Source: Candidatus Bathyarchaeia archaeon
Lineage (GTDB): Archaea > Thermoproteota > Bathyarchaeia > Bathyarchaeales > Bathycorpusculaceae
Length of the DNA stretch: 64,000 nt
Assembly (NCBI GenBank): GCA_049512075.1
Contig: JBEKXL010000002.1
Location: 128,001 to 192,000 of the forward strand
Direction: 5' to 3'
The position numbers were made by a program, and so were the translations under genes. This document shows positions 5,381 to 50,084 of this stretch, piece after piece. The stretch's first letter is position 1. The number at the start of each line of letters is the position of its first letter. The notes below the pieces were generated by a model. That model ran no database searches. It was not told the origin of the DNA and saw only the letters and a program-made list of their open reading frames with translations.

Positions 5381-5823
5381 GTCTCTGCTTAATACATCTG
5401 ACGTAGTTGCTCTTCCAATGTAAACGTTTCTCAGACTCGTCTTGTTTCTGGCCCTGCGTTTCCCCTTTCTTTGGGAGCGCGCGCCGGTTCTGTGTCTTCC
5501 GTTTGTAGATAGGTTAGGAGAGTTCCAGTAGCGCTCTCTCTCGTCTACCTCCTAGCAAGACGAAGACGGATGCAACGTGGGAAGCTTGGCTTCTGACTGC
5601 AAAATGTTTGGTGTCTGAGTGTGCGGCTTTGCTTCAGGAAAACTCTGTGACCTCTGAAGGCTTCGGCGCTGACCCCCCCCTCCTTTTTCGTAACATCACA
5701 TAACATTGTTTTGTCACGAGCCTCGAAGGGATAGGCGCGCGGGGGAAAGAGCTCAAAGAAAAAGGAAGCTTATCTCGACAGGAAAAGATTTGAATAGGCT
5801 CAGGTTTCTCTTAAAACTGGTGT

Positions 5824-6072
5824 TTGGAATTGGGTGAACTCAAGACAATAGTTGCGAAGATCGAATCTGACATGCTGAGTGTTCCTGAAGAGGTTAGGGA
5901 GATACTCGGCCACGACACCAGGCTCATCGTTGGCACGGCCGCAGTCCTCGCGTTTTCAGCTGGCACTTCTTACGCAGATATCCTTAGGAGTGTCGAATTA
6001 ATACAGGATGACCTAAAACTTCGTATGGCCAAGGAAAAATCAGGAACATCAAAACCAAGACGTTCCAAGTAG
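5824..6072 (+). CDS. small hypothetical protein, possibly AbrB-like DNA-binding
   Basis: SVPEEVREILG resembles the AbrB IPxxxR motif; weak. Confidence 0.45.
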   Translation: MELGELKTIVAKIESDMLSVPEEVREILGHDTRLIVGTAAVLAFSAGTSYADILRSVELIQDDLKLRMAKEKSGTSKPRRSK

Positions 6073-6273
6073 AGAGTAACAATCGCTGAGAACCGTGTTT
6101 TCTTGAAATGTGCAAATGGAATAATCTAGGAGGTCCTAGACTCTTAACAAGCGTATTGAACTCTATTGTTGTCCGCGAAGAACCATGTTCCATGGGATTG
6201 TGGGCGTTTTGATTATTGGTTTGGCGCTTCTCGAGATTTAATGTTTATATGTTCTAATGTCTAAGATTCTTTC

Positions 6274-7158
6274 ATGCAGCGTAGGCGTAGGAAGTCTCAT
6301 AACCTCAGGAATGCAGTAATCGTCATAATCCTATTGATCTTTATCATCAGCGTAGTCGTAGTGGCCTACCAGATGGGTGCGCGCGCGGGGCCTCCGATAT
6401 ATTCCGATGTCTCAACCACTTCAACGAAGGCGGCTTCCGCGTGTGCTTTCAGTGTTCTGTGGGCGGGTAACACGAACGTGAGCGGCTACATTTTTGGAAC
6501 GAACAACACGGGCGCATTCGTTAATGACACTTGGACGCCGTTCATCGATTTCGCGAATCAGACTTCCGCTTATTCCAGGGTGACGGAGACCTTGGACAAC
6601 ACAATTGGCGATGTTGTTAGCTGGGGCTTCTGGTGTAATGATACGAGTAACCGCTGGAGCGAGATTCCATTGCAGACCCTTTATGTCGTCACAGACAAGG
6701 TTCTCATCGAGACAAACATGGGAAACATAACGATTCTGTTGTTTGACGACATGCCCATCACAACGGGAAACTTCAAGAATCTGGTAAGAACAGGAGTGTA
6801 TGACGGAACAAACTTCACCCGAGTTGCTCCGGGTTTTGTGATTCAAGGCGGGGACGCTACGCCTAAGGCAGTGCAGAATATTACTGATGAACTTCCTAAC
6901 AAGCACAGCAACCTGCGGGGCTACGTGGCCATGGCGAAGACAAACGAGACCAACTCTGCTACGAGCCAGTTTTTCATTAACTTGAACGATTCAAACGCTG
7001 CCTTCTTGGACAGCAATTACTCGGTGTTCGGCAAAGTAATAGCAGGCATGGACGTCGTGGACGCGATCAGCCAGGTGCCATTCACTCCGGTTCTATCCGC
7101 GACTGATGGCACACCGATACAGCCAGTGACGATGATAAAGGTAATGTTCATAAGCTGA
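6274..7158 (+). CDS. membrane-anchored cyclophilin-type peptidyl-prolyl isomerase with extra extracellular domain
   Basis: N-terminal TM helix; C-terminal ETNMGNI...YDGTNFTRVAPGFVIQGGD...VAMAK...SATSQFFIN...YSVFGKVIAGMDVVD. Confidence 0.9.
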   Translation: MQRRRRKSHNLRNAVIVIILLIFIISVVVVAYQMGARAGPPIYSDVSTTSTKAASACAFSVLWAGNTNVSGYIFGTNNTGAFVNDTWTPFIDFANQTSAYSRVTETLDNTIGDVVSWGFWCNDTSNRWSEIPLQTLYVVTDKVLIETNMGNITILLFDDMPITTGNFKNLVRTGVYDGTNFTRVAPGFVIQGGDATPKAVQNITDELPNKHSNLRGYVAMAKTNETNSATSQFFINLNDSNAAFLDSNYSVFGKVIAGMDVVDAISQVPFTPVLSATDGTPIQPVTMIKVMFIS

Positions 7159-7211
7159 CTGGGTCGAGCAGCCTATCACATGTTCCAGCATACACACGGG
7201 ATTCTTATGAA

Positions 7212-7574: not shown

Positions 7575-7625
7575 ACAGATGAGTTACAAGTAACAAGAAC
7601 AGTTTTCTTGCGCGCGCGTAAATTA

Positions 7626-7649
7626 GTGCGGGGGGTGGGATTCGAACCC
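7626..7649 (-). repeat. att direct repeat: 24-bp copy of the tRNA-Leu 3' end
   Basis: GTGCGGGGGGTGGGATTCGAACCC identical to 12868-12891. Confidence 0.92.
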
Positions 7650-9281: not shown

Positions 9282-9348
9282 GAAACATCGGTCCATTTGT
9301 GCACACACTGTTAATGCGATTAGCGCGCGCGATAGACTTTATATTCAC

Positions 9349-10698
9349 ATGTTTTTACAGAGTAGATTGGTGGGAAGAGAAATGCTGGTAAGGTTGGTTG
9401 CTGTCGTGTTGCTGGTTCTTCTGTCAGCCAGTGCGTTTCAACTGGCTTATAACGTGCAACTGGTGTGGGCCGATAATCCCAGTTCTTGGCCAATGTTTGG
9501 CCACGATCCTTTGCACTCAGGGTATTCAAGTTCAACAGGACCGGCTACAAACCAAACTCTTTGGAGCTATAAGACTGGCGGCTGGGTTGAATGTGGTCCT
9601 ACCGTCGCTAATGGCACTGTCTATGTGGGCTCTGATGACGGCAAGGTTTATGCACTGAACGCTTTGACGGGCGCGCTGGTGTGGGAATATCAAACTGTTT
9701 TCTTCGTGTATTCTTCTCCTGCTGTTGTAAACGGCATAGTATACGTGGGCTCAGGCGGCAACGTTTACGCCCTGAACGCCACGACGGGCGCCTTGATGTG
9801 GCTCTACCAAACTGGCAGCTCTGTGCGATCTTCTCCTGATATTGCGAACGGGATAGTCTATGTTGGCTCTGGTGACGAGTCTAGTTCTCCTGCCGTTGCC
9901 AATGGGACGGTCTATTTTGGCACGGAGAACGACAATGTTTACGCCTTGAACGCTACGACGGGCGTATTAGTCTGGAAATATAATCCTGCCGACGCAAACG
10001 GCACAGTCGTTGAACCGCCGTTAAGCATGCTCTTCACCGTTTATGCATTGAACGCTTTTACTGGCGCGCCCGTGTGGAATTACACGACCGGCAACTATGT
10101 GGATTCTCCTGCAGTTGCCAACGGCATCGTCTACGCAGGCTCATGGGACCACAACGTTTACGCGTTGAATGCTGTGACAGGCGTGCTCGTGTGGAAATAC
10201 CCGACCAGCTCCTCTGTGACTTCTTCTCCAGCGGTTGCTAATCTTGTCGTCTACATTGGTTCAGGTAGCAACGTTTATGCCTTGAACGCGACAACAGGCG
10301 CACTGATGTGGGGCATCGCGACCAGTTCCATTCAGGTTTATTCTCCAGCTGTTGCTGGTGGTGTTGTCTACGTGGGCTCATGGGAGGGCCATGTTTACGC
10401 TTTGAATGCTACAACGGGCGCATCAGTGTGGAAATACGAGACTGGCGGTGGCGGCGGCGAGGTGGGTTCTTCTCCAGCTGTTGCTAACGGCGTCGCCTAC
10501 GCGGGCTCAACGGACGACAAGGTCTATGCCTTTGGCCCGCGGTCTCAAGGGACCGACTATACTGTGCCATTCGTCGTTGCAGCAGTCATCATCGTTGCCG
10601 CGATTGCTTCGTTCGTTGTCGCTGTAGTGAGACGTGAAAGAAAAAGACCGCCACTAGACAGCGCGCTGTCTCGCCCCGAAAATGGTCCGAAAGAGTAG
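9349..10698 (+). CDS. PQQ-like beta-propeller repeat surface protein
   Basis: repeated SSPAVANGxVYVGSxDxxVYALNAxTGxxxW units; signal peptide; C-terminal TM helix. Confidence 0.92.
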   Translation: MFLQSRLVGREMLVRLVAVVLLVLLSASAFQLAYNVQLVWADNPSSWPMFGHDPLHSGYSSSTGPATNQTLWSYKTGGWVECGPTVANGTVYVGSDDGKVYALNALTGALVWEYQTVFFVYSSPAVVNGIVYVGSGGNVYALNATTGALMWLYQTGSSVRSSPDIANGIVYVGSGDESSSPAVANGTVYFGTENDNVYALNATTGVLVWKYNPADANGTVVEPPLSMLFTVYALNAFTGAPVWNYTTGNYVDSPAVANGIVYAGSWDHNVYALNAVTGVLVWKYPTSSSVTSSPAVANLVVYIGSGSNVYALNATTGALMWGIATSSIQVYSPAVAGGVVYVGSWEGHVYALNATTGASVWKYETGGGGGEVGSSPAVANGVAYAGSTDDKVYAFGPRSQGTDYTVPFVVAAVIIVAAIASFVVAVVRRERKRPPLDSALSRPENGPKE

Positions 10699-11000
10699 CG
10701 CGCTGCCTTGTCCCGAAATTGGTGTAAAATGGTGATAATTCCTGTTTTCGGGTTTAGGGACAGTTTTGAGGCGCATATGTGTTTTTAGCCCTCCTCTGTG
10801 CCTCGACGTCCCAGACGGACTAGACGTAGCTTCAACAGCTTATGGGAAAACTCCACTTCCATCCCGCTTTGATGGAACCCCGTGATTTGCCATCTTTCAA
10901 CGTGGCCAAAAATAGCCGCCAAACAAGCTCAAATGACGCTCCAATTGACAAAAGAAGAATTATGACCATTTTTAACCATTTTAGGGACAAGCCAGCGCGC
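10698..11000. mobile_element. non-autonomous TIR element copy A, flanked by GCGCGC
   Basis: ~40-bp imperfect inverted ends GCGCGCTG(C/G)CTTGTCCC..AAA.TGGT..AAAATGGT.ATAATT; homologous to 33410-33891. Confidence 0.8.
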
Positions 11001-11034
11001 TAGTCTCATCTGTTCTAAAGCTTAGACTTAATTA

Positions 11035-12639: not shown

Positions 12640-12868
12640 TATCTTGATTTTCCGGATTTATAGAACTTGTTGATTTTGAAGAAGTACAGACGTGCAACAA
12701 GGTTCTTTTGTCGGTTCGGCTTCGACTTTATCTCGATTCGTCTGTTTCGTTTCGCTCTCATCGCCTTTGAGTGATGGTAGCTAAATTCTTGTTGGTGTAA
12801 AGCTTGCACAGGAGAAGCAGGGCTAATATCCAGAAGAATAGCGCGCGCGGTCATTTTACTTATAAAGG

Positions 12869-12983
12869 TGCGGGGGGTGGGATTCGAACCCACGGAGGCC
12901 TTCGCCAGAGGATCTTAAGTCCTCCCCCTTGTCTTAGGCTTTTTCTGGCCCTGCCTATTTAGACCTGGCTCGGGTACCCCCGC
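12869..12983 (-). tRNA. tRNA-Leu(TAA) with a 30-nt non-canonical D-arm intron (12929-12958)
   Basis: cloverleaf GCGGGGG...GAGGA-CTTAAGA-TCCTC, long variable arm, GGTTCGAATCC; intron forms a BHB-like motif. Confidence 0.92.
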
Positions 12984-13526: not shown

Positions 13527-13835
13527 TAATACAGCGCGCGCGCTCGTTGAAATCGGCCTCAGGGATGAAGTTGGCGCGCGCGCTTCCGAAATGCTCTGCT
13601 ATCCTGCGTTCATACGGTTGTTGTCTGACACAGGAACCATAACTGTAGTTTTCATAGTGTCGACAGATCGCCGTCTACGAAAAAGATACAGGTTTTTGAG
13701 GATGAAGAAGATGAGCACTCAGAAATACTCAGAGTGCGAATTGACCCTCAGAAAAGAAAGCTTGGAAACGCAGAACAGAGAAAGAAACGGCTAAGCCAAG
13801 TCTTCGAGTTCTCGAGCTTCTCTGGCGCGCGCGAC

Positions 13836-14594: not shown

Positions 14595-14700
14595 TATGTC
14601 TCCTCCGAAGTAATCTCAGATAAGATTCTATCAGTATTTATAACTTACGTGAAATAGCAGAGCGCGCGCTAAAGCCTGTTTTGATAATGGTATATGTGTC

Positions 14701-15213: not shown

Positions 15214-15274
15214 GGCTCTGTGAAGTCTCCGTTGGTTTTGGGGTTCATGTGAAAAACCGTTTGGTGAACAAAAC
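15214..15274 (+). repeat. left terminal inverted repeat
   Basis: GGCTCTGTGAAGTCTCCGTTGGT...TGTGAAAAACCGTTTGGTGAACAAAAC. Confidence 0.9.
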
Positions 15275-15391
15275 GGATAAAGGTTCTAGTACTTGGTTCT
15301 GTCAAGTCTTCGGTTGATATGCCTTCTTGTGAAAAAGCGGTTGATAACTGTTTTGCCTTAGTTATCAAGGCTCTTTCCAAGAGAAAATTCT

Positions 15392-18498: not shown

Positions 18499-18506
18499 AG
18501 GGTTAA

Positions 18507-20128: not shown

Positions 20129-20130
20129 GT

Positions 20131-32711: not shown

Positions 32712-32949
32712 AGAGAAGAAAGCCTTGCAACGAACAACGTTGCTTGACTAACATGTGACCTTCGGCACAGAATTCTATCGAGTCAAACTGCGCACGTTTT
32801 TTCGATGTTCAATGCCTCCTTAAGAATTTGATTCGTTAGCGCGCCGTGGCTTTGGGCCGTCGTGAGGCGGCGGATCATGATTTTCTGTCGGCACAAGATT
32901 ATTAAACACACCTTTTTCACTAAATAACATCTGCCTCAACTAAGGAGGA

Positions 32950-33150
32950 ATGTTGTTGCCCCGAAAATTTACTTACTCAAATGCCGGTGTCGACAGGGAG
33001 TTAAGAGCTCATTCTAAGAAGGCACTGGGTTATCTTAAGAAAACCTACGGTTACAGCCATTACGGCAAACTCGTCGATCTTCCATATGGGAAGATTTTTC
33101 CAGGGATAGACTGCTACTTTGGCTTGGTCATTGAAGGTGTGGGCACAAAG
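32950..33150 (+). pseudogene. purM: N-terminal fragment of the native AIR synthetase
   Basis: TYSNAGVD...IEGVGTK; homology stops where an inverted-repeat element starts at 33151. Confidence 0.82.
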
Positions 33151-33312
33151 GGATTAGACCCCGAACGAGACTGTGTGAAAACTCGGGTCGCTTTCAGAAA
33201 ATTGCTTGTTTTATGTGTAAAAGGCTGACCTTGGGACGTGTTCTATACATGTAGAGCGCAATTTCTTGAAACAAATTTGACTTTTCACACAGTCTCGAAT
33301 GGGGTCAAGTCC
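33151..33312. mobile_element. MITE-like element
   Basis: perfect 16-bp IR CGAGACTGTGTGAAAA (33166-33181 / 33282-33297) inside a 10/12 outer IR (33151-33162 / 33301-33312). Confidence 0.75.
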
Positions 33313-33409
33313 AACTGTCAAATTCTTCAGCGCTCGCGCCGACAATTTCATCCTTGTCCCCAAAAATCCTTCCATTTTATAAAGATATCAAACGAATAGA
33401 CAATTGAAA

Positions 33410-33891
33410 GCGCGCTGCCTTGTCCCTAAAATGGTTAAAAATGGTTATAAGTCCGTTTTTGCTTGTCTGAGCCTGAAATGGACTTCTTTGACGAACGCGT
33501 TTTATGCAGCGCTTAAGGACGGCAAACCCAGAAGCTTCACAGTGCTTCTGAGCGAAGTGGGGTTTAGCCACAACACTTTGCAGCAGCATCTCAAGCGTCT
33601 AACGGCTCAAGGTCTCATTGTCAGGGAGAAAGCAACCGCGAACAGTTTCGGAAGACCCAAATTTGCCTATCATGTGCCATCCAAGACCACGAAACAGGTC
33701 ACCGTCGCCCTCCAACATCCACGCGTTGAGCTCGTGGCCCTCCCGTTTAGTCGCTTAAGGCACGTTTGCAGGTTTGAGAAGGGCGGTTACTGCAAAGAAA
33801 GAAGGAGGGGCTGTGCGCCTCAAAACTGCCCCCAAACCCGAAAATAGGAATTATGACCATTTTACACCAATTTCGGGACAAGCCAGCGCGC
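33410..33891. mobile_element. TIR element copy B, flanked by GCGCGC
   Basis: same inverted ends as 10698-11000. Confidence 0.8.
33478..33847 (+). pseudogene. wHTH protein with C-terminal Cys4 cluster, apparent +1 frameshift after codon 9
   Basis: ATG 33478 gives MDFFDERVL then an early stop; the shifted frame gives AALKDGKPRSF...FSHNTLQQHL...GRPKFAY...CRFEKGGYC...CAPQNCP. Confidence 0.65.
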
Positions 33892-34049
33892 TATGCAGAT
33901 CTGGAATCAGCACATTTGGCATTCAGGATCCTCGCCTTCCTATATATTTCGACATATGTTCGGAGTGATCAGAGGGTTTTTTGCCATTCACCTAACCACG
34001 ACGTTGAGAGGCAGGATCGAATTGCACATATGCCGTGCCCCTTTCGAGA

Positions 34050-38679: not shown

Positions 38680-39094
38680 AAAATGTGTTGACGAGGGCTA
38701 ACGAGCTGGTTTACACGGAAGGCCAAACTAAAAATCCTCCTGTGTGAAAGACTCTTTGAGTAAAGGATTTATCCTCGTCATATGATTGGTCCTTCAACGA
38801 TCAGCCGTCCAAATATCTCCTGCCTTCTTACAACTTTTTTCGCTATCATATTCAAAGTCCATAGTCTCTCAATGAATCACTGGGGATTGATAGAGCTGGA
38901 ATAGACAACCAGAAAACAGAGAAACTCTTGATGGCGCTGCGCACTCTCGAGCGCGAGGATGCTCAGCGCACCAAAAACGTGCGCGTGTAAAGGCCTGATG
39001 GATACGAACCTGTTCGGATCGGAGTCTCTAGGTACTTGTTGCTCAGCTCGCCAAGAAATTTGACACTATCGGCGTTGACGGCGTAGCGCGCGCG

Positions 39095-39319
39095 ATTCAG
39101 GAGACTGCGGCCGACCTAGGTGGAACAATATCAGAAGAAGAAATGTTCAAGACGTTTAACATGGGATGGGGCTTCGCCCTGATAGTTAACAAAGAGGACG
39201 GCGAGAGGGCAATAGACGTTCTGGAAAAAACTGGCACAGAGGCTGAAAAGATAGGTCGCGTGACCTGTGCAGAAGGGGTCAAGATTCTCTACAAGAACAG
39301 AAACATTGCTCTGAAGTAA
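39095..39319 (+). pseudogene. purM: C-terminal fragment of the native AIR synthetase
   Basis: IQETAADLGGTISEEEMFKTFNMGWGFALIV...KIGRV...*; starts immediately after GCGCGCGCG; directly upstream of purS. Confidence 0.85.
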
Positions 39320-39374
39320 CGTTTGCCTTGTTAATGTGGAAAGCGTTTAAATCTGCTTTTGCCCAGTTTAGCCT

Positions 39375-39626: not shown

Positions 39627-42004
39627 CGGCAAGCCTGTTTGTCCGCAGGAAAACCCCCTTTTCCCTCGTTGACGTGATGGTTCTCGGAGCCTCTGACGAG
39701 CAGCTTCTGGAAATCAGCCGCGAGCTTGGCTTGGCCCTTAGCCTGCACGAGATGAAGATGGTAAAAGAGCATTTTAGCAGGAGGGGACGGAACCCGACCG
39801 ATGCCGAGCTTCAGACCATCGCTCAAACGTGGTCTGAGCACTGTTTCCACAAGACTTTCAAGGACAGAATCAGGTTTGACGGAAAACTGATTAACGGTCT
39901 TTTCAAAACGTACATTGCAAGTGCGACGAAGAGGATCAGTCCGGACTGGTGCTTCTCTGTTTTCGAGGATAACGCGGGCATCGTGAACTTCGACAAAGGG
40001 TACGGCGTGGCCGTCAAGGTTGAAACGCACAATCATCCGTCGGCGGTGGAGCCTTTCGGCGGCGCGGCAACGGGGACGGGCGGCGTCATCCGAGACATCT
40101 TGGGCGTGTGGGCGGATCCGATAGCGTGTACGGATGTGCTGGGTTTTGGGCCCTTGGATTTTGAGTATGAGAAGTTGCCCAGCGGTGTTAAGCATCCGAG
40201 GTACGAGTACATAGGTGTCGTGGCGGGGATAGGAAGCTACGGCAACAACATGGGAATTCCAACAGTGAACGGAGCGATATACTTCGATGAGAGCTACACG
40301 GGCAACGTTGTTGTCTACTGCGGCTGCGTGGGCCTGCTTCCGTTTGACAGGTTCAGGAGGGATGCGAAAGCCGGTGACGCGATTGTGCTTGCGGGTGGCA
40401 AGACTGGTCGGGACGGTGTTCACGGGGTGACTTTTGCGTCTGCGGAGCTGACGGAGAAATCTGAGACGGTTTCTCGGCCGGCCGTGCAGATCGCGAACCC
40501 TGTTGAGGAGGAGAAATTGAAGAGGGCAATCGTTCAGGTCCGAGACATGGGGCTGGCATCAGGCATAACGGATCTGGGCGGTGGAGGCCTATCTTCGGCG
40601 GTCGGCGAGACGGCCAACAAGTACGGCTGCGGAGCAGTGGTTGACCTTGACAAGGTACCATTGAAGTATGCGGGGTTGGCTCCGTGGGAAATCTACGTTT
40701 CAGAGTCACAGGAAAGAATGCTGCTGACGGTGCCGTCTGACAACGTTGAAAAGGTTCTCAGAGTCTTTGGCGGAGAGGATGTTGAGGCGACGGTCATCGG
40801 GAGACTGATTTCCGGCGGATTACTGAGGCTTGATTATATGGGTGAGAGGGTTGGGGAGTTGGGCATTTCCTTCCTTTTCAAGCCGCCGAGAATCACTAGG
40901 ACGGCGGAGTACCATCCTGCAGGTGATGCGGAGCCGATGTTTCCGGAGCCTGAGGACTTGAATGAGGTGTTAATGCGGGTTTTGGCTTCGCCTAACGTGG
41001 CGAGCAAGGAGAGTGTTGTGAGGAGTTATGATCACGAGGTGAAAGGGCACACGGTGCTTAAGCCATTGCAGGGCGAGTTTGGCGGGCCAAACGATGCGGC
41101 CGTGTTGAAGCCGCTGGATGATTCTTGGAGGGGCATAGCGGTTTCGTGCGGCATGAACCCAAGTTACGGAAGGATTGATGCTTACTGGATGGCGGCTTCA
41201 GCGATTGATGAGGCCGTCAGGAACAACGTCGCTGTTGGCGGAAGAAGAATTGCTTTGCTGGACAATTTCACGTGGGGCAATCCCGAAAGACCTGAACGAT
41301 TGGGCAGCTTGGTACGGGCCTGCGAAGCGTGTTACGATTTTGCCGTTGCTTTTGGGACGCCGTTCATATCTGGGAAAGACAGCTTGTACAACGAGTCGCC
41401 GCTTGGACCCGTGACGCCGACACTTCTGATTACGGCTCTAGGGTTCATGCCTAATATTCGTTCAACGGTTTCGATGGATGTTAAGGCTTCGGGCGATTCT
41501 ATGTACGTTGTGGGCGAAACTTTTCCGGAGCTGGGCGGCTCAGAATATTACAAGCTGAAGGGATGCTTGGGCAAGTCTGTTCCCAACGTGCGTGGTGCTC
41601 AGGCTAGGAAAGGGTTCAAGGCGGTTACTAGGGCGATTGACCATGGGCTGGTTAAGACGTGCCATGACCTGTCTGAGGGCGGTTTGGCCGTGGCGGCGGC
41701 GGAGATGGCTTTTGCCGGAGGTTATGGGTTGGAGTTGGATTTGGGCAAGGTTCCGGCGAAAGATCTGGGACGTGATGATTTTGTCTTGTTTTCGGAGTCG
41801 AACAGCAGGTTTCTTGTGGAGGTCTCTGGGAAGGCTCGGGACGAGTTTGAGGGTTTGATGAAGGGCGTGGTTTGTGCTGAGGTTGGCAAGGTAACAAAGT
41901 CTCCTCGGCTGTGTACCAGCGGTCTGGCTGGTGGAGTGATTGTGGACGCTTCGTTGGGCGATTTGTTGAAGAGTTGGAAGAGAACCTTGAGCAGTGGGGT
42001 GTGA
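39623..42004 (+). CDS. purL: FGAM synthase subunit PurL
   Basis: WSEHCFHK, KVETHNHPS, GAATGTGGVIRD, DLGGGG, SESQERM and CHDLSEGG. Confidence 0.97.
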   Translation: MTASLFVRRKTPFSLVDVMVLGASDEQLLEISRELGLALSLHEMKMVKEHFSRRGRNPTDAELQTIAQTWSEHCFHKTFKDRIRFDGKLINGLFKTYIASATKRISPDWCFSVFEDNAGIVNFDKGYGVAVKVETHNHPSAVEPFGGAATGTGGVIRDILGVWADPIACTDVLGFGPLDFEYEKLPSGVKHPRYEYIGVVAGIGSYGNNMGIPTVNGAIYFDESYTGNVVVYCGCVGLLPFDRFRRDAKAGDAIVLAGGKTGRDGVHGVTFASAELTEKSETVSRPAVQIANPVEEEKLKRAIVQVRDMGLASGITDLGGGGLSSAVGETANKYGCGAVVDLDKVPLKYAGLAPWEIYVSESQERMLLTVPSDNVEKVLRVFGGEDVEATVIGRLISGGLLRLDYMGERVGELGISFLFKPPRITRTAEYHPAGDAEPMFPEPEDLNEVLMRVLASPNVASKESVVRSYDHEVKGHTVLKPLQGEFGGPNDAAVLKPLDDSWRGIAVSCGMNPSYGRIDAYWMAASAIDEAVRNNVAVGGRRIALLDNFTWGNPERPERLGSLVRACEACYDFAVAFGTPFISGKDSLYNESPLGPVTPTLLITALGFMPNIRSTVSMDVKASGDSMYVVGETFPELGGSEYYKLKGCLGKSVPNVRGAQARKGFKAVTRAIDHGLVKTCHDLSEGGLAVAAAEMAFAGGYGLELDLGKVPAKDLGRDDFVLFSESNSRFLVEVSGKARDEFEGLMKGVVCAEVGKVTKSPRLCTSGLAGGVIVDASLGDLLKSWKRTLSSGV

Positions 42005-42823: not shown

Positions 42824-43413
42824 GTTGAGAAACCTTCCAGCACTTATCTATCTCACGAACGAAATTAAGAGAGATTCTGGCAAACACAAGGTTTGTGTGA
42901 GACGTCACCACTCGGCACGCATGCGAACAAAACGTGAGCTTACATATTCTCTTCTTAATAGATTGCGTACGAATGAATTTAAGGTGCGCTATGCCCGAGG
43001 TGTTCTACACGGTTTTCCTTTTCACCCAAAGAAGCCCTATTATCATCCACACACTGAACGGTCTTCTACTATGTGTTCCCAAAACAAACCATGTGTCACA
43101 TTTTCTCTTTCTCATGCTGTGATAGCACATTTCGGTTACTTTCTGTTTTGCTACCTCTGTCTGAAGCGCGCACCTTAAGCAAGGATCGCAACGTTTTAGA
43201 AAACTAAAGAAAAAAGTCCATATATACAGTAGGCGTTTCTACTCTGTCGTTCACAGATGAAATTGTGAAAGAAACACATTTCACAATGGAGTTTGTTCAG
43301 AAAACAAAGCAGAATTGCGTGCATACGTTCAAATGCACTCTAATAAGAGTTAAGTTCCAGCAGAGGTTAGTGATCGGAGTCTAACGCGCACGAATGGCAG
43401 AGTTGACTTTGAA

Positions 43414-45384
43414 ATGGCGTCTGATTCTCAAACTCAGAATCTCATGGAAAGGGTTTTGGGCTTCGAAAAAAAGTTCGTAAATTACATCATTGATCCATTG
43501 CATGGCCAAATAGGTCTCACCCCGCTCGAGGAGAATGTTATCAAGACAAAAGCTTTCAGAAGACTGCGGAATATCCAGCAATTGGGTTTTGCCTCCAACA
43601 TCTATCCAGGAGCAACTCACAAGCGCTATGAGCATTGTATTGGTACTTTGCACGTAACTTGGACAATGTTTAAACAATTCATAAAGAATTATGCTGTCCA
43701 AAATCAGTGGACAAACTTTGAATTGATGGAGTCCTTTTCTGATGAAATGTTGGAATTTCTGAGACTTGCCGCACTTCTTCACGATTTGGGGCATGGTCCA
43801 TTTTCTCATTCATTTGAAGAGGTGGCGAATAGTATGGGCCAGAAAATCGACCATGACAGGATAACAAATTACCTTCTGACTTACGACTTCCCAGATGAAG
43901 CTATTGAGGATTTGTGCCCTGATCCAGACACTCTAACGCTAATGAAGAAATCAGAAAAATTGAAAGCCTTCAGGGAAGAACTCAAAGTCATTCCCACAGA
44001 AACCAGAGAACCTATCGTTGGAATCTATGAAAAAGACTACAAAATGCTGTTGTCAAAACCGAAAGGATTTGAATCAATTCGGCTTTTTCTGAATAATATT
44101 CTTAAGGGCGATATTGGCTCAGACCGAATTGACTATCTGTTGAGAGACACATACTTTTCTGGGCTGGGTCATCGCTTCAACTTTTCTGATCTGATCAGTA
44201 ATCTGCGAGGAATGTATGATTCCAAATCGAATAGATTGCTTCTCGCAATTGATTCCAAGGGAAGGAATATAGTTGAGTTCATCATGATGACCAGATACTA
44301 TCACTACAGACTTATTGCTCATCATCCGCGCAATGTTCTGGAAGAGACGAAATTCAAGGAACGCGTCAAAAGTCACTTGGAAAGACCTGCAGAATTTACT
44401 TTCTTTTCTGCAGCGATGGATGATGATGGCATTGAAAGAATACTTCCACCTTTTGAGAAAAACATCGAGCTGGCAGGCGCCTGGGATATGAATTCAATCG
44501 GATTGGATCATTTTCGCTATTTCTTCTACAGGTTGGCAAGTGATTCGCGCCTTAGAGGTGAGTACCTTAGACGAATCAAAAATAACATTGTTAGAGGCGT
44601 CTACCAACATACGGGATTAAAGATTCACGATGAAGATGTTCTTCTTGCCTTTGTTCTTGAAACTCCCCACCTGCCATTAATCCAGATATATCGAGAGGAA
44701 TATCAAGTCAAAAAGGACGAGGATATTGAGAAATATAGTGTTTTGCTTCATGATTATTCGATACTAGCTCAAGGACTGGCAAGGGCTTACCTTGAGGATT
44801 CGTCACTTCTGGTTTTTGCCAGAAAAGAAGATTGTCAGAATATCGGAAAGTACACGCGCTCTACTCACCATTTTTACGTAAACGAGTATCTTTTCTCGAC
44901 ATTGATGTCGAGCGTCCAAACTTTGGACAAGAATAGGTACGACTTCTTGCTTTTTGCTCTCCATGAAATTACAGATGGAGGGATGAAGGTTTTTTCAGGT
45001 ATACTCAGCCTTTTCGGCAAGATTCTCGAAATGCAACGAAAGCTTAACGTCAGCTTTTACGACTTTGATCACAAGTATTTCTATGATCCAGATCGTGGTT
45101 CTTTTTGTTATCCTACGGTACTAGGGAAAGAACAGAGCCTAATTGACGATTTGTTTATGTTTGACGCAGCAGGGCTTATTGAAATAAGAATGCACTTCGT
45201 GAACAGAACGTACGCGGGCAAACCCTATCATTCATACTCCTACTTCTTCACTCCAACTATAAGGACGCAGGACATCACACAATTGCCAATTTCAGTGATC
45301 CCATTGAAAACAGCGCTTAGGCTATATTCCCCAGACTTCAAAGATAAATATGGATTGACAACAGAACGTTTGCGGTCACCCTAG
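43414..45384 (+). CDS. HD-domain phosphohydrolase, SAMHD1/dNTPase-like, with long unknown C-terminus
   Basis: DPLHG, RLRNIQQLG, YPGATHKRYEHCIG, LLHDLGHGPFSH and DRIDYLLRD. Confidence 0.9.
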   Translation: MASDSQTQNLMERVLGFEKKFVNYIIDPLHGQIGLTPLEENVIKTKAFRRLRNIQQLGFASNIYPGATHKRYEHCIGTLHVTWTMFKQFIKNYAVQNQWTNFELMESFSDEMLEFLRLAALLHDLGHGPFSHSFEEVANSMGQKIDHDRITNYLLTYDFPDEAIEDLCPDPDTLTLMKKSEKLKAFREELKVIPTETREPIVGIYEKDYKMLLSKPKGFESIRLFLNNILKGDIGSDRIDYLLRDTYFSGLGHRFNFSDLISNLRGMYDSKSNRLLLAIDSKGRNIVEFIMMTRYYHYRLIAHHPRNVLEETKFKERVKSHLERPAEFTFFSAAMDDDGIERILPPFEKNIELAGAWDMNSIGLDHFRYFFYRLASDSRLRGEYLRRIKNNIVRGVYQHTGLKIHDEDVLLAFVLETPHLPLIQIYREEYQVKKDEDIEKYSVLLHDYSILAQGLARAYLEDSSLLVFARKEDCQNIGKYTRSTHHFYVNEYLFSTLMSSVQTLDKNRYDFLLFALHEITDGGMKVFSGILSLFGKILEMQRKLNVSFYDFDHKYFYDPDRGSFCYPTVLGKEQSLIDDLFMFDAAGLIEIRMHFVNRTYAGKPYHSYSYFFTPTIRTQDITQLPISVIPLKTALRLYSPDFKDKYGLTTERLRSP

Positions 45385-45537
45385 AACACATAGAGATGAA
45401 CATTGGTGACCCGTCATCTCGGGTCTCTCTTTTCCACAACAGATTTTTCAGTTTTTTGCTTTCAAGCTTCTCTTGTTGTCATTAGAGCTTTGGCTCTTCA
45501 CAAATATAAACTGCGCTTGACCTGTATATAAAAGGTA

Positions 45538-46290
45538 TTGATCAGCTTGGAATCAATCACAGAAAAACGCGAACTCTTCAGACATTACTATTCGAAATCA
45601 TATCCAGTTAACAGGAATTTGCTGGATCTCAAATTCAGACATTTCCGTTTCCAGCTTTTTTCCAAAAAGGTCACGTTTCGCAGGATATTGGACATTATCA
45701 ATTCCCCCGAGCAATTGCGTGACAAATTGATAAGTTATGTTCCTTTGAATGCTTATTTCACTCCTGTCAAATGGTTGAGTCCGATTTACGTTGGGCATAC
45801 CAAGAATGTTCTTGAGGTGATGCTGTCGGCTCCACTCTACTTTGACATAGACATGCAGGACCTCTTTCCTCCTGTTTTTTCAGAAGTGAAAAGAAACACT
45901 TTACTTTTGCTTGAGATTTTGGAAGAAGAATATTCCCAACGCCCAGACTTGATTGTCTTCTCTGGAAGGCAAGGTTTTCACATCTACTTTTGGAAGTGGG
46001 ACATGCCTGAAATCCTGAAACTCAATCCTGCGAGCAGAGTGATTGAATTCAAGAAGCAGAGATCTATTATTCTAGAAATTGTGAGAAGAAAAAAAGTCGT
46101 TGTTGATGAAAGGATCACTGCTGATCCGTTTAGAATCATGAAAATACCAAACACGCTTCATGGAAAAACTGGTCTCATTGCTAAGCCAGTCAAAGAAGTT
46201 GAAAAGTTTGATCCTAAAACGGATGCTCAGGCATTTGATCGTGAAGTCTATGAGCGCCTTTTTAGGATTGACTGGGGAATTTACGACTAA
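45538..46290 (+). CDS. stand-alone archaeo-eukaryotic primase (PriS-like)
   Basis: LYFDID (motif I), FSGRQGFHIY (motif II), D...DPFRIMKIPNTLHGKTG (motif III). Confidence 0.85.
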   Translation: MISLESITEKRELFRHYYSKSYPVNRNLLDLKFRHFRFQLFSKKVTFRRILDIINSPEQLRDKLISYVPLNAYFTPVKWLSPIYVGHTKNVLEVMLSAPLYFDIDMQDLFPPVFSEVKRNTLLLLEILEEEYSQRPDLIVFSGRQGFHIYFWKWDMPEILKLNPASRVIEFKKQRSIILEIVRRKKVVVDERITADPFRIMKIPNTLHGKTGLIAKPVKEVEKFDPKTDAQAFDREVYERLFRIDWGIYD

Positions 46291-46665
46291 ATTTCCAGAA
46301 TCCTTGCTGCAAACTCGGTCTTAGACGTCAAAAATCGTATAACCTCAAAACATGCGTCGGCATTCATCAAGAAAGGAACCCTTGCAACCAACCTATTTGG
46401 CTCAGCACTGTAGGCATGACACGTCGTGTTCACATGAACAGACAAACGGTGACTTGCTAGAGGGTGAACTCGGCTAAAGTGCGATGGAGACATTTCCACT
46501 GGCAGTCAAGTTCAAATTCCAAACAGAGCACAACCCGAGCAAGTTCTATGCCTCGTTGTTCTTCAAAGCTGGTACCAGCCTTATGCCAGTTCTCGGTTGA
46601 TTTATATAAAAAAAGGAGGATAGTAATTGCACTTGAGTTCTGGGCGTCGATGGACTTGAGAGACT

Positions 46666-47322
46666 ATGAGCAAACCAAATAGGAGCGATAGAAAAGCCGA
46701 GGTCGGTGGTATTTCCTCAAGCAACTCCATTAAGAGATATAGTGCGCTTCTAGAAAATAAGTTGGGTGCTTTTGACGTTAAGGATAACGGAGAATATGTT
46801 CTACTGCACAAGCGAATCAGGCTTCCAGCCAAGAAATTCATTGATGCTATCGTTTACTCTACTGATAGAATATACATTTCGGGTTCGGCATACATAGATA
46901 GTGACGAATTTGGACAGAATGCAACGAGAATAGTTGAACTAGCTCAACAAGCCATTTCGCCTGTTGAAAATGTGCGACCAATCTCTATCCAGAGTGCCAA
47001 AGATATTCTAGATTTTGCCAAGCACCTCAACCTAGACAAGGACTATGAACGGATGATAGCGATCATTTTGTCAGACACTTCCAATGAAATTGTTCTTAGA
47101 GAAAAAATGAAAGCCTTCCAAATTGCAGGCGTTGCTCTAGATGACAGCATTCCTGAAAAGATAAGGAGATTAAGGGAAAAAGGTTGCCAATTTGTTGAGG
47201 AAGTTGGAATAAAAAACCTTAGAGAAATACGAAACAAAATCGTACACTATGGAGAAATACCTCATAAAGGGCAAGCGGAAGAATGTTTGAAACTAGCAGA
47301 TAGAGTCCTTCGGTCGGTGTGA
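46666..47322 (+). CDS. putative HEPN protein with N-terminal TBP-like (RNase HIII-type) domain
   Basis: RNKIVH RxxxxH motif in a helical C-terminal domain; AIVYSTDRIYISG resembles the RNase HIII N-domain ITAYxSGKVLFQG. Confidence 0.6.
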   Translation: MSKPNRSDRKAEVGGISSSNSIKRYSALLENKLGAFDVKDNGEYVLLHKRIRLPAKKFIDAIVYSTDRIYISGSAYIDSDEFGQNATRIVELAQQAISPVENVRPISIQSAKDILDFAKHLNLDKDYERMIAIILSDTSNEIVLREKMKAFQIAGVALDDSIPEKIRRLREKGCQFVEEVGIKNLREIRNKIVHYGEIPHKGQAEECLKLADRVLRSV

Positions 47323-47978
47323 ACATGGTTCTTGGAGGTCTGAATGAATACGTTGCATATATTGGTTCAGATGAAGCAGGTAAAGGTGAATGGCTCGGGC
47401 CTCTTATTGTGGCCGCTGTTGCTTTATCAAGGCAACAGCGTTCATATCTTGTCACTCAAGGAGTAATGGATAGTAAAGAACTCAGGCTAGATGTCATAGT
47501 TGAACTTGCCAAAGTGATACAGAGGTCTTGCCTTTCTTATCATGCTATGACAATCTCCCCTCTTTCATTCAATGATCTGATGAAACAGGTGAAAGGCGAA
47601 GGACGGAGTCTAAACGACATTTTGGCATGGGGGCACTCGCAAGCAATCGGCAATGTTTTTGAAGAACTCACCCGAAACGGAATATCAGGCAAGATCAAGC
47701 TTTCAATCGATATGTTTGACCAGATAAAAACAGAAGCTAGACTGAAGAAAATCATTGATTTAGAGAAATTTGATTTAGATCACCGACCGAAAGCAGAAAG
47801 CGAAACTTCTGTAGCAGCAGCAAGCATAGTTGCTCGCGCTGTAAGGGAACTTTGGATTGATGAAAAATCAAAAGAACTCCGTCTGGATTTGCGAAAGCTC
47901 TCAGTTAATGAAGCAATATCGCGATCTGATGCGGGCAACTTTGCAAAGGTAAGTTTCTTGAAGCGGAGAAAACTGTAA
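47319..47978 (+). CDS. rnhC: ribonuclease HIII-like catalytic domain
   Basis: IGSDEAGKGEWLGPL, GVMDSK, LNDILAWGH, IDMF and KAESETSVAAASIVAR; GTGA overlap with the upstream gene. Confidence 0.8.
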   Translation: MNMVLGGLNEYVAYIGSDEAGKGEWLGPLIVAAVALSRQQRSYLVTQGVMDSKELRLDVIVELAKVIQRSCLSYHAMTISPLSFNDLMKQVKGEGRSLNDILAWGHSQAIGNVFEELTRNGISGKIKLSIDMFDQIKTEARLKKIIDLEKFDLDHRPKAESETSVAAASIVARAVRELWIDEKSKELRLDLRKLSVNEAISRSDAGNFAKVSFLKRRKL

Positions 47979-48594
47979 GTTCTTTACTTGTCTTCTGGAT
48001 AATAAATGATCCATTCTTGTCGAACGTTTCTAAGCTTCTCTATTCTAAAATCTGTTACTGGCGCCTGTTACGTGCATAATGGTCGAAACCGAATTCTTCA
48101 ATAAAAAGAGCGTGCCATAATGTGGCATAGATCCATTATACTAATTGTTGTATGCGACAAGTTGAGGTTCTTAATGCCAGCAAGCGCTTTTATCGCTACA
48201 GGTTCGCATGAGCAGATCAACAGAAGCCTCATTGTACAAGTTGCTCAAGGAATCAACTAACTAACAAGTCTTGAAGCGCGCAGGCGACGCTCCCAGTATA
48301 ACAATCGCTCATGCGCTGCTAACCTTAATGAGAACTATCAATTTCTGTAATTGGCGGGGGTTTTAGCCTAACCTGCCCACGGGCTCTCCCCTGATCTTGT
48401 TTCTGAACCTGCCTGCGCTGCAAAAGAAGAACAAGATTTAACCGTGAAATGGCCAGATTACGATGCTAGAGCGCGCGCATGACGTGCTGGTACTCATCTG
48501 CACCTATCATTGAAGATTGTTCATGGCTGGCCTCAGAAGGAGAAATATGTTATAGGTCCTGACCAAGAGAAGGGCCTTGCTTTGTTGGGCAAGC

Positions 48595-49965
48595 TTAGGT
48601 GGGCGTGATTTTGTATTCTTTTCCTCGTTTGATGAGTTGAACCTTGTTGCTTATTTTCTTGAATAGGTGCGCGTTTTCTGTGTGCACGGGATAGATTTTC
48701 TTGGGTTCTATTTCGTTGATGAGGTTTCCTATCTGCTCCTTGTTCATGTGTCCGGAAGCGTGCAGCTGGTGAAACTGTATTCCAAAATGTTCAAGCCAGT
48801 TGTGCAGGACCTCGTCTTCAATGTCCTCTTCGCTGAAGGGTTCACTCATGCTGTGTATGAAGCAACTGCCTCGCTCCGGCCTTATGTCTATCAGCTCTGC
48901 AAACTGGTAGAAATCCAAGTCCATAATTAACTCGTTCTGGTTCTTGTGAACGAACTCGTACGTCACCATCTTGTCCATGAATTCTCTCTCCCACGCATAG
49001 TAGTCACTGTCGTCAAAAGTTCCAGACCTCTTGCGCTTAAAATACACGAGTATGTCTTCATCCTTCAAAGGATCTGGTAGATCAAGACGTTCGTCATCGA
49101 TGAGCCTGCTCAATAAACACGCTGTCTTAGGAGAAATAACCATTTTTCTTCCGTTCCTCTTGGCAACGTTGTAGAAGCTTCTGAACCTATCCATGTCTCG
49201 GCTGTAATGCGATATAAACACGATTTTGTGTGTTGAGGAAACAAGCTTATTGCTCAAATGCTCTACCTGCGCCTCTGAATAGTTCTTTCTTTTTTCCTTC
49301 AAAGTCATTCTCGTGCCCTCGCAGACAAGAGCCGTGGCCCCCGATTCTTTCGCCCTGTGCACGAAATCGTCAGTCAAATCCCTCCGTGGACCATGCATCC
49401 TCAAGTCGCCCGTGTAAGCAATGGTTCCTTCAGAAGTGTGTATCAAGAAGCCGTAAGCCGCTGGAATCGAATGGTCCACGTGCACCGGTTCCACTTCAAC
49501 GTCACCCACTCTGATCTTCTTTCCAGTGCGGAAAGTCCTGTAATCGTGGTTTCCATAATCGCAGAAGCTGCTCGTCTCTTCCATCGACTCAAGAAACAGC
49601 TTGGCCCCAACACCAAGGTACACTGGAATTAGAGGGTCTGTGAAGCAGATGTGAGTCACATGGTCAAAGTGAGCGTGCGACAGAAAAATAGCGTCGAACT
49701 CCGGCTCCGAGTACGGAACATCGGTGAAAGCCAGCTTCTCCTTGGCATAGAGCCCCCGAATCTTCGGCAGCAAACCAAACTCGAAATGGTCTCCCAAACC
49801 GTTTATCGCACGTGGCGAAAGCCAGCCCGTAAAGTATCCTGCGCCAAAACTGAAGGACTGGCCAAAATCAAACAACAATTTCGTTTTTCTATCGTGCACA
49901 AGAATCTTGTTGCCGCCGATCTCGTCGACCCCACCGTAAAAAGTAAGCCCGACCATCCGACTCAC
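48595..49965 (-). CDS. MBL-fold metallo-hydrolase (RNase J/beta-CASP-like)
   Basis: GGVDEIGGN, SHAHFDH, VDHS, YTGDLRMHG, HASGH and PVHTE. Confidence 0.9.
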   Translation of the reverse strand: MSRMVGLTFYGGVDEIGGNKILVHDRKTKLLFDFGQSFSFGAGYFTGWLSPRAINGLGDHFEFGLLPKIRGLYAKEKLAFTDVPYSEPEFDAIFLSHAHFDHVTHICFTDPLIPVYLGVGAKLFLESMEETSSFCDYGNHDYRTFRTGKKIRVGDVEVEPVHVDHSIPAAYGFLIHTSEGTIAYTGDLRMHGPRRDLTDDFVHRAKESGATALVCEGTRMTLKEKRKNYSEAQVEHLSNKLVSSTHKIVFISHYSRDMDRFRSFYNVAKRNGRKMVISPKTACLLSRLIDDERLDLPDPLKDEDILVYFKRKRSGTFDDSDYYAWEREFMDKMVTYEFVHKNQNELIMDLDFYQFAELIDIRPERGSCFIHSMSEPFSEEDIEDEVLHNWLEHFGIQFHQLHASGHMNKEQIGNLINEIEPKKIYPVHTENAHLFKKISNKVQLIKRGKEYKITPT

Positions 49966-50084
49966 ACAAAAACAAAATGCAGACGCCCCTTTTCTAGTTT
50001 AGCTTGCTCGCGCTCACTCAGTTCAGTCAATGCGATCTGTTGCGCGCGCGGAAGCACTAACTACAGTCCCTGACTCATACATTG

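Follow-up and report, generated by a model that had tools for sequence, protein, structure and literature searches.

Alternating G/C runs in the window

The 64,000-nucleotide stretch of DNA analysed here (the window) belongs to G000, the genome of an uncultured peat Bathyarchaeia archaeon (2,725,246 bp in 86 contigs). It carries genes for prefoldin, eIF-6, L31e, S19e, the Rpr2 subunit of RNase P, TFIIB, formylmethanofuran:tetrahydromethanopterin (H4MPT) formyltransferase (FTR) and heliorhodopsin, together with an aspartyl-tRNA synthetase (AspRS) that is 94% identical to its homologue in a Bathyarchaeia metagenome-assembled genome (MAG). It also carries 12 runs of at least eight alternating G and C nucleotides (nt), which are the subject of this study. 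The comparison set comprised 41 related genomes, among them four congeners (G001-G004), of which G002 is the closest, and two representatives of other genera of the same family (G018 and G021). All genomes are MAGs; G001 is 77% complete, and 1.57 Mb of G002 was used, in which aligned DNA is 91-97% identical to G000. The runs, and the genes that they adjoin or interrupt, are as follows.

5477..5484: (GC)4 run, intergenic; collinear with G002, which reads TTTGGGGGCGCC (degenerate) at the aligned position
6379..6387: 9-nt run within a cyclophilin-type open reading frame (ORF, 6274-7158), in its 5' part; G002 is one substitution away (GCGCGGGCG), G003 and G001 further
7610..7618: 9-nt run at the left limit of a stretch that G002 lacks; a 24-nt copy of a tRNA 3' end (7626-7649) lies 8 nt away
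9323..9331: 9-nt run between an unknown ORF and a pyrroloquinoline quinone (PQQ) beta-propeller gene, in the G000-specific segment 7207-12865; homologue absent from the congener regions compared
12841..12849: 9-nt run closing the G000-specific segment on the right; G003 homology begins 2 nt past the run
13534..13543: (GC)5 run at an exact homology border; the G002 alignment begins at 13544, the first base past the run, and G002 has no run there
13574..13583: (GC)5 run, collinear; G002 reads GAC-CGCGCGC at the aligned place
13825..13833: 9-nt run, collinear, 2 nt past the stop of the KaiC-like gene; G002 reads GGCGCGCGG with a 2-nt gap
13836-14594, minus strand: KaiC-like gene, with a Pfam KaiC match
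14662..14669: A(GC)4T run, collinear; G002 reads AGCGTGCGCT, one substitution away
32944..33151, plus strand: 5' piece of the native purM, severed by a 5.9-kb insertion (33152-39029)
39086..39094: 9-nt run at the joint where the native purM has lost 600 internal bp; the G002 purM is intact and run-free at both end points
39095..39319, plus strand: 3' piece of the native purM, past the deletion scar, aligned through to the end of the G002 purM
48471..48478: (GC)4 run at the left border of the block encoding a metallo-beta-lactamase (MBL)-fold hydrolase; G002 homology begins at 48473, and G002 reads AAAAGCGCGACATG
48479..50041, minus strand: MBL-fold hydrolase gene block, placed differently in G002, between FTR and the gene next to it, and on a separate contig in G004
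50042..50050: 9-nt run that closes the MBL block on the right and is followed by a dispersed repeat of about 210 nt; G002 homology stops at 50042, and G002 has no run

Five of the 12 runs stand at exact homology borders (12841 against G003; 13534, 39086, 48471 and 50042 against G002), five have a degenerate counterpart at the collinear place in G002 (5477, 6379, 13574, 13825 and 14662) and two lie inside DNA absent from G002 (7610 and 9323). Near run 12841, which overlaps a doubtful 84-aa ORF, the homology of G002, G001 and G004 begins at 12866, the tRNA end. Run 6379 was probably made or completed by a point change.

An earlier note, made from the letters of the window, had located all 12 runs, and each was confirmed. 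It had placed eleven of them between genes; by our ORF map (ORFs of at least 90 aa, which make 81% of G000 coding) ten or eleven are intergenic, with 6379 lying in an ORF and 12841 in the doubtful one. Its statement that the core block at 50.3-64 kb is free of runs held at a length of at least 8 nt, but the block does contain 6-7-mers missing from its list of shorter runs (51177, 53922, 57309, 59005 and 59874), as were those at 9671, 10064 and 10661. The KaiC-like block (13833-14662), which it had listed among the genes bracketed by runs, is collinear with G002 and no indel in that comparison.

A bare palindrome in large excess

In the window, GCGCGCGC has 14 overlapping matches at the 12 loci, against 0.58 +/- 0.74 (maximum 2) in 100 dinucleotide-preserving shuffles, which agrees with the earlier estimate of fewer than one by chance. 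The window does not stand out: its 1.9 runs per 10 kb compare with a genome mean of 2.1, from 581 alternating runs of at least 8 nt. Across G000, GCGCGCGC is both the most frequent 8-mer and the top palindrome (638 copies, with 29.6 expected under an order-1 and 44.4 under an order-3 Markov model, a 14-22-fold excess), and no other palindromic octamer exceeds 3-fold except its own phase variant. The excess is greatest between genes, where 507 copies are found and 5.4 expected (order-1). By its GC-richness and degree of over-representation, GCGCGCGC belongs with the octameric palindromes of the highly iterated palindrome class (GC-rich, at least 15-fold over-represented).

The runs have a narrow range of lengths, with 284 of 8 nt, 186 of 9 nt, 105 of 10 nt and, past a sharp cut-off, only six of 11 nt or more. 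Their consensus is A(GC)4-5T, the preceding base being A and the following base T in 58% of cases each, and conservation does not extend farther out. A flank of similar sequence in the same register exists for only 35 of 1158 run flanks; the runs are therefore bare, solitary palindromes and not pieces of longer repeats. No sequence of the repetitive extragenic palindromic (REP) or miniature inverted-repeat transposable element (MITE) type was common to the runs beyond the palindromic core, either in these G000 flanks or in a 400-kb sample of G018, where none of 140 flanks of runs of at least 6 nt was repeated.

By the ORF map, 449 of the 581 runs are intergenic, 124 lie in ORFs and eight straddle an ORF border. 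Of those in ORFs, 72 fall within ORFs shorter than 150 aa, a class that makes up 11% of ORF bases. The 6-mer GCGCGC occurs within ORFs near chance (539, with 428 expected under order-1), so many of the 6-mers that the earlier note had read as brackets of genes carry little weight. Run density is 0.79-1.11 per kb across the four spacer orientations, convergent spacers being slightly richest (1.11 vs 0.79-0.87), and gene ends are mildly preferred, with 19 runs within 5 nt of a stop codon and one within 5 nt of a start codon. Such a distribution corresponds to neither a promoter nor a simple terminator signal. The runs are also clustered, leaving 55 of 196 10-kb bins empty where a Poisson distribution predicts 27.5.

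Beyond G000, the number of GCGCGCGC matches is 168-460 in the four congeners, 227 in G018 and 439 in G021; a few of the 41 genomes have 19-53 (G023 and G030 have about 50 runs each) and most have 0-7. In 400-kb samples of G021 and G018, the latter with 40% G+C, and in G002, the runs resemble those of G000 in length (8-10 nt), preference for the GC phase, A...T flanks and intergenic share (69-78%). The trait is thus limited to some lineages, a restricted set of Bathyarchaeia. The AspRS neighbourhood (loci L001-L080) is run-poor even in G000 and was uninformative on the distribution of the motif.

Homology to relatives often ends at the runs

For each run we determined whether the alignment to a relative crosses it or stops there (within 3 nt), with random intergenic positions as controls. 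Of 568 G000 runs tested against G002, 325 had a match; the alignment crossed 70 of these and ended at 112 (34.5%), 22 of them from both sides. By comparison, 799 of 1500 control sites had a match, of which 546 were crossed and 39 (4.9%) coincided with an end. The reciprocal test gave the same picture, with 52 of 216 matched G002 runs crossed by G000 and 84 (38.9%) at an alignment end, as against 628 and 24 (2.9%) of 832 matched controls. Breakpoints are enriched about 7-13 times at runs relative to controls (odds ratio about 10 in the G000-against-G002 test), and the runs mark borders of variable DNA genome-wide in both lineages. This is what the earlier note had expected of aligned relatives. 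Its further claim that runs bracket gene cassettes holds for the MBL gene (48471/50042), which lies elsewhere in G002, but its 6-mer brackets are less secure: 10698/10995 and 33410/33886 are not free runs but the ends of a MITE present in two copies.

At the 112 exact breakpoints, G002 was without a run in 71, and had 4-5 alternating nt in 13, 6-7 nt in 15 and at least 8 nt in 13. Among 87 simple indels, defined by one allele of at most 25 nt and another of at least 50 nt, the short allele was a run of at least 8 nt in 19, and in 15 of these 19 the long allele was run-free. The short allele was a 6-7-mer in a further nine, and in 11 a run was found at one end of the long allele only.

Runs at deletion and insertion joints

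At 14 of the 22 both-sided breakpoints, G002 keeps 89-4694 extra bp, on the same contig and strand, precisely at the place of the G000 run. In nine of these 14 the extra DNA is run-free at its ends, unique in both genomes and part of ORFs that cross into the shared flanks. Because several runs, that at 39086 in purM included, stand in place of deleted gene-internal DNA, they are newly made. In the case of purM, the G002 gene is intact with 362 codons; the window is 600 internal bp short, and its joint reads GCGCGCGCG, while the end points in G002 read ...GTGTGGC/CATGG... and ...CCAATT/GATTC... (the slash marks the break). Both the deletion and its run are derived, since G003 also has about 600 bp there. 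The earlier note had described two truncated genes as breaking at a run, and this was borne out for purM; the supposed integrase tail at about 13330 had no Pfam match. A second deletion, at G000 C1:89124, is derived in that G003 retains the whole gene, and a third, at C16:27815, is probably so, to judge from the segment of similar size retained by G004. For G000 C1:111338 the left flank alone matched in the outgroup comparison, which was uninformative.

In 15 events followed at the level of single bases, the filler measures about 8-14 nt and consists of the run, often preceded by 1-4 A/T-rich bases (TA, TTA, CATA or TTAC). Insertions can show the same feature on both sides: in G000 C3, CGCGCGCGC and GCGCGCGC flank an insert of 6885 bp that stands in for 64 bp of G002 sequence, without duplication of the target.

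The runs decay without sign of selection

Among 68 collinear runs classified against G002, 24 were kept, 24 had one or two substitutions, four had more and 16 had indels. With 92.2% mean identity in the surrounding alignment, 37.2 of the 70 crossed sites would be expected to be kept under neutrality. By this measure the runs are no better kept than their surroundings, and appear to decay like neutral DNA, in which case intact runs would be young. At the observed rate of loss, the 581 runs need steady renewal, and this fits the many breakpoint runs that are specific to one lineage.

The runs as marks of new DNA joints

Taken together, these data give good support to the view that the runs are young marks of novel DNA joints that decay neutrally, one at a deletion and one on each side of an insertion, in a limited group of Bathyarchaeia. 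A more specific reading, which we prefer while placing it slightly short of an even chance, is that they are scars or filler at such joints. A(GC)4-5T, often after 1-4 A/T-rich bases, would be written in when two DNA ends join, so that a deletion would leave one run and an inserted or transposed segment a run on each side, followed by neutral decay. An end-joining route might add alternating G/C to both 3' ends, or slippage might expand a GC microhomology; the self-complementary tails would anneal on reaching about 8-10 nt, after which the joint would be sealed. Annealing at this length would account for the sharp length window, and such a route would also account for the palindrome, the use of GC microhomology and the independence from any element. 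A family of insertion sequences (IS) and MITEs tipped with GCGCGC, described below, would be a secondary user that inserts into or mimics the abundant palindromes. Only as a tentative and somewhat doubtful extension do we propose that some Bathyarchaeia, and possibly other Thermoproteota, have an end-joining process that puts defined, self-complementary tails of alternating G/C on broken ends, joins the ends through annealing of these tails and so stamps A(GC)4-5T on every deletion, insertion or gene capture that it makes.

If the runs are joint scars, the genome of an uncultured archaeon itself shows at which places, and at roughly what time, DNA was lost, gained or moved, and the commonest 8-mer becomes a countable and datable record of the genome's own rearrangements. 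This would bear on break repair and on the uptake of foreign genes in archaea that mostly have no Ku. If they are instead footprints or targets of IS, a single prokaryotic transposon family would have shaped a third or more of the structural variation as well as the top 8-mer, which would be unusual. Under either reading, the motif can serve in practice to point out variable DNA in these MAGs.

Alternative explanations

The alternative that survives best, although we judge it unlikely, is that the runs are footprints of IS5/IS1182-like IS and MITEs: excision would leave 4-5 nt of each tip, and the two remnants joined would give (GC)4-5. On the same reading, IS-mediated adjacent deletions would leave one run, and composite transposition followed by IS excision would leave cargo between two. 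The elements in question are represented in the window by two MITE copies.

10697..11001: MITE copy with inverted repeats tipped GCGCGC, reading TA GCGCGC TGCCTTGTCCC ... GGGACAAGCCA GCGCGC TA
33409..33893: second MITE copy of the same family, inverted relative to the first, carrying a 147-aa winged helix-turn-helix (wHTH)-like ORF

The parent of the MITE is a 1.1-kb IS with a terminal inverted repeat (TIR) of GCGCGC-TG[C/G]CTTGTCCC and a 349-aa DDE transposase, which matches the Pfam families DDE_Tnp_1 (46.4 bits, cut-off 23) and DUF772 (35.5 bits, cut-off 23.1); the nearest NCBIfam models, both under cut-off, are IS1182 (85.7 vs 270) and IS5 (69.2 vs 140). Several properties of this family speak for footprints. 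The GCGCGC start is common to IS copies in G000, G002 and G021 whose transposases are 43-100% identical, so the tip is retained down to 43% identity, and about 42 IS/MITE tips in G000 are preceded by exactly 6-8 alternating nt. TIR matches are most numerous in G000 (47) and G021 (46), followed by G002 (27), G001 (18), G004 (14) and G003 (7), with 0-7 elsewhere and none in G018; close transposase copies are restricted to the genus of G000, to G021 and to a fragment in G024. IS/MITE tips and solo runs have the same outside A/TA preference. There are also sites with intact flanks that are polymorphic between element and run: a G002 MITE faces a 10-, 8- or 9-nt run in G000, and a G000 IS faces GCGCACGC in G002. 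A 4.7-kb G002 segment that ends in a MITE tip had no transposase-like ORF by eye.

Such filled and run-bearing sites appear to fit excision footprints and IS insertion into pre-existing runs equally well, and at two sites the element-free allele has no run. To our knowledge, IS4/IS5-type enzymes do not leave footprints derived from their tips. The IS that target REP sequences are a precedent for palindrome-targeting IS. Similarly, the SDR5 repeat may insert at the cyanobacterial palindrome HIP1, according to PMC5861425. The IS family leaves three things unexplained. G018 is run-rich with no TIR, transposase or repeated run flank, and the IS transposase likewise had no match in G023 and G030, with their roughly 50 runs (MAGs can lose IS copies). 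The 581 runs stand against a few dozen elements, a roughly ten-fold excess. Finally, deletion joints inside unique genes bear no trace of an element, and any resection of flanking DNA should have removed tip remnants first. In addition, the 6885-bp insert has neither a TIR beyond its runs nor a target duplication.

The second alternative is that of the earlier note, akin to proposals made for HIP1, in which the runs are pre-existing crossover or target sites of a recombinase or transposase, or fragile hot spots prone to Z-DNA or cruciform formation, at which cassettes are exchanged, deleted or inverted; we consider it improbable. It is right about the borders of variable DNA, and IS with a transposase and GCGCGC tips do exist. 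Moreover, the runs are clustered, a palindrome would permit both deletion and inversion, and at 28 of the 112 exact breakpoints G002 has a run of at least 6 nt at the same border with different DNA beyond it. Some G002 inserts even lie between two partial runs which together make the G000 run (as in GGCG, 575 bp, CGCGC). Crossover sites nevertheless fit a minority of borders. The partner is run-free at 71 of the 112 breakpoints, runs have arisen de novo inside intact ancestral genes, and in the few polarised events both parental sites are run-free; at least three deletions interrupt genes that relatives keep whole, and their end points there are run-free, where the earlier note required a site beforehand. 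At the window's single inversion (26556-29304) the borders are 53-nt inverted repeats and not runs, no recurrent recombinase was found beside the runs, and the circular cassettes or empty sites that the earlier note had suggested looking for were not seen in the Logan contigs. An 8-10-nt core is also far shorter than known att or attC sites.

That the runs are a selected signal which accumulates between genes, such as a terminator or boundary, a binding site for a chromatin or regulatory protein, a methylation or mismatch-repair site of the sort suggested for HIP1 or a DNA uptake sequence, strikes us as very improbable. Like HIP1 or uptake sequences, they are hyper-abundant, palindromic and lineage-specific; they favour stop codons over start codons (19 vs 1) and, slightly, convergent spacers; and, among the 68 collinear sites, 28 are separated from their counterpart by substitutions only, one or two in 24 cases. 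Against this, fewer runs are kept than neutrality predicts (24 vs 37.2), their density is similar in the four spacer orientations, no C5 methyltransferase was found in the run-rich genomes, and selection or biased repair would leave the insertion of runs at deletion joints unexplained.

Chance, or an artefact of metagenome assembly or binning, is scarcely credible, for although all genomes are MAGs and G000 contigs often terminate in repeats, the run is shorter than the usual word length of assemblers, the Markov excess is 14-22-fold, none of 100 shuffles reached the observed count, the pattern recurs in seven genomes of differing contiguity (8 to 86 contigs), and the joints at 39086, 48471 and 50042, which the earlier note had feared might be mis-assembled, are reproduced in Logan contigs.

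These joints were checked in assembled Logan contigs of run X1 and of the peat runs X5, X6 and X7. The X1 contigs cover 33862-40069 and 43122-50090 with 0 differences and take in all three runs. Contigs of X5, X6 and X7 reach the region but end less than 31 nt past runs 39086 and 50042, and were not counted as bridges; Logan joints at 33445-33856 belong to other, shorter MITE copies.

Weighing the joint-scar reading

Several observations weigh against the reading of the runs as scars or filler at new joints. More than half of the simple indels (48 of 87) have no run in either allele, so the making of runs is not the sole joining route. Polarity is settled for two or three events only. Short GC motifs were already present at some deletion end points (GTGCGC, CGCGCAC, and GGCG with CGCGC), and part of some runs is therefore templated. 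The window insertions of the classical transposon or tRNA-site type have run-free borders; both the IS6-type transposon at 15215-23306 and the insert at 33152-39029 have none. GCGCGC-tipped IS/MITEs occur in five of the six run-rich genomes besides G000, and the three or four sites at which an element faces an 8-10-nt or near run between intact flanks fit footprints or targeting. The ORF caller is crude, and X1 may be the source sample itself, in which case its contigs are not independent support.

The enzyme searches add to these points. Ku (PF02735) was found in six of the 41 genomes, namely G000, G002 and G004 and the run-poor G010, G020 and G040, and was not found in the run-rich G001 (77% complete), G003, G018 and G021. 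PolX (PF14791), present in G003, G020, G029, G032 and G039 only, is a misfit, and reverse transcriptases (PF00078; telomerase- or retron-like) were found in none of the 41 genomes. Among the profiles tried, we found no enzyme that fits the distribution of the runs.

Other candidates were set aside on similar grounds. A filler made by Ku-dependent non-homologous end joining (NHEJ) was rejected because the distribution of Ku does not track the runs; the G000 homologue lies at C16:6054-6590 (E 8e-41). A C5 methyltransferase (PF00145), as would go with a HIP1-like system, was not found above cut-off in any run-rich genome (G000-G004, G018 and G021; G002 reached 19.4 bits, below cut-off), N4/N6 enzymes not having been profiled. 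An IS630/Tc1-type transposase (PF13358) occurs in G000 on contig C58 only, without GCGCGC termini, and in no other run-rich genome. This contig, 1927 bp long, has identical first and last 127 nt and holds a GC-rich IS630-type (DDE_3) transposase gene in otherwise AT-rich DNA; it may be circular or a tandem repeat, and either a contaminant or a small element. The broad DDE_Tnp_1 family is non-discriminating as a run-maker, with 11 matches in the run-poor G014.

We also inspected, for 90 one-sided breakpoint runs, the 4 kb past the point where homology stops and found no recurring recombinase, the IntI profile not having been searched; the largest gene families there were wHTH membrane proteins (10) and parts of ATP-binding cassette (ABC) transporters (8 and 5). 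An integron-like system would have attC sites of tens of nt and IntI, and the sites here are bare 8-10-mers.

Other variable segments of the window

Several other segments of the window differ between G000 and its congeners. The 5.9-kb insertion in the native purM (33152-39029) has run-free borders with AGG alone in common, and G002 is continuous over 33151/39030. It carries a second AIRS-family (purM-like) gene (34050-35153, minus strand), a methyltransferase gene and a MITE, and looks like a foreign copy that replaced the native purM, which then began to decay.

The segment at 15215-23306 (8.1 kb) is absent from G002 and has 20-nt TIRs (15214-15233 and 23287-23306), a 9-bp target duplication, CTCGTCACG, and run-free borders. 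Its cargo includes an 891-aa N6-methylase/Eco57I-like gene and an IS6-family transposase (18603-19739), and by this content it looks like a cargo-carrying IS6-type transposon.

Identical 24-nt copies of a tRNA 3' end (7626-7649 and 12868-12891) flank a 5.2-kb G000-specific segment that contains a wHTH protein, the PQQ beta-propeller, a MITE and a serpin, and each copy has a 9-nt run 8-17 nt outside it. This arrangement suggests an island that integrated at a tRNA gene missed by ARAGORN.

The segment at 26556-29304, which has the opposite orientation in G002, contains NikR-like and P-type ATPase genes, and its 53-nt inverted repeats (26556-26608 and 29426-29478) belong to a dispersed repeat family. 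Another dispersed repeat, of about 210 nt, is found at 50051-50262 and at about 40 places in G000; many copies lie 3' of members of a gene family with a dockerin-like C-terminus, and the repeat ends ...TTAGCA directly before a GCGCGCGC run. Just left of the MBL block, at 48364-48412, lie 49 nt that match the 3' end of the gene at 52123-53205 with 84% identity, a decayed copy and a trace of an earlier, G002-like arrangement.

Two insertions in G002:C5, of 2.9 kb and 1.9 kb (the latter with the MBL gene), stand opposite window positions 4739-4752 and 52124-52137, each between 14-bp direct target duplications, AAGCCTCATATAAA and TAGCCCAACCTGCC-like respectively; duplications of this length are reminiscent of casposon-type integration.

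At 43414-47978 lies an accessory cluster absent at the DNA level from all four congeners. It encodes an HD/dGTPase-like protein of 656 aa, a PriS-like archaeo-eukaryotic primase (AEP) primase-polymerase of 250 aa (45538-46290), an unknown protein of 218 aa and an RNase HII-like protein, and could be a defence or repair module. The heliorhodopsin gene (25505-26329; PF18761, E 2e-88), which is conserved in G002, adjoins a methionine sulfoxide reductase gene.

Comparison with known systems

Leaving supplementary files aside, we found no description in the literature of such runs in archaea, or of joining with a sequence-defined filler. In abundance the runs resemble HIP1 (GCGATCGC) of cyanobacteria which, according to PMC4390886 and PMC5861425, is likewise a GC-rich octameric palindrome, the top over-represented word, lineage-specific and accompanied by variant motifs in some lineages. 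Its possible part in recombination, and its use by small repeats as a place to insert, have long been under discussion (PMC4390886, PMC5861425). HIP1 is described as conserved by selection within and between ORFs (PMC5861425) and is accompanied by cognate methyltransferases (PMC4390886); the text of PMC4390886 mentions neither GCGCGC nor archaea. Unlike HIP1, the runs are mostly intergenic (449 of 581), are conserved at or below the neutral level, have no C5 methyltransferase that we could find, are associated with breakpoints and are created at deletion joints.

Non-parental bases at a joint are also seen with end-joining fillers and N-nucleotides, as in Ku/LigD NHEJ, the action of polymerases of the terminal deoxynucleotidyl transferase (TdT) type and archaeal primase-mediated microhomology joining, and some end points in the present case have short microhomologies. 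Known end-joining fillers are short and variable in sequence, or else copied from nearby templates. In contrast, the runs are one defined, self-complementary sequence of a fixed 8-10 nt, and Ku does not follow the distribution of the trait.

Excision footprints and palindrome-targeting IS (Tc1/mariner-type elements, the IS of REP and bacterial interspersed mosaic elements (BIME), SDR5 at HIP1) resemble the present case in that IS/MITE tips equal the run and some sites are polymorphic. The runs differ in exceeding the elements more than ten-fold, in being present in G018, in which the family was not found, and in sealing deletions within unique genes; no clear target duplication was found.

REP/BIME and the attC arrays of integrons are extragenic palindromes between genes, and single genes can be bracketed by such repeats, as some are here. 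REP and attC are imperfect palindromes of 20-150 nt with family-specific sequence and a dedicated enzyme (RAYT and IntI). For the runs, nothing is conserved past the palindrome and its flanking A/T, and no recurrent recombinase lies nearby.

The GC clusters of yeast mitochondria are tens of nt long. Like the runs, they are short GC-rich palindromes in spacers that vary among close strains, and in PMC4478555 they are proposed to be recombination hot spots that insert or delete large fragments, through an enzyme that was not identified. One family, GC42, is described there as forming a functionally constrained stem, with AG as its target site and with co-conversion tracts (PMC4478555). Unlike GC42, the runs are bare 8-10-mers that appear to decay neutrally, and they belong to an archaeal chromosome.

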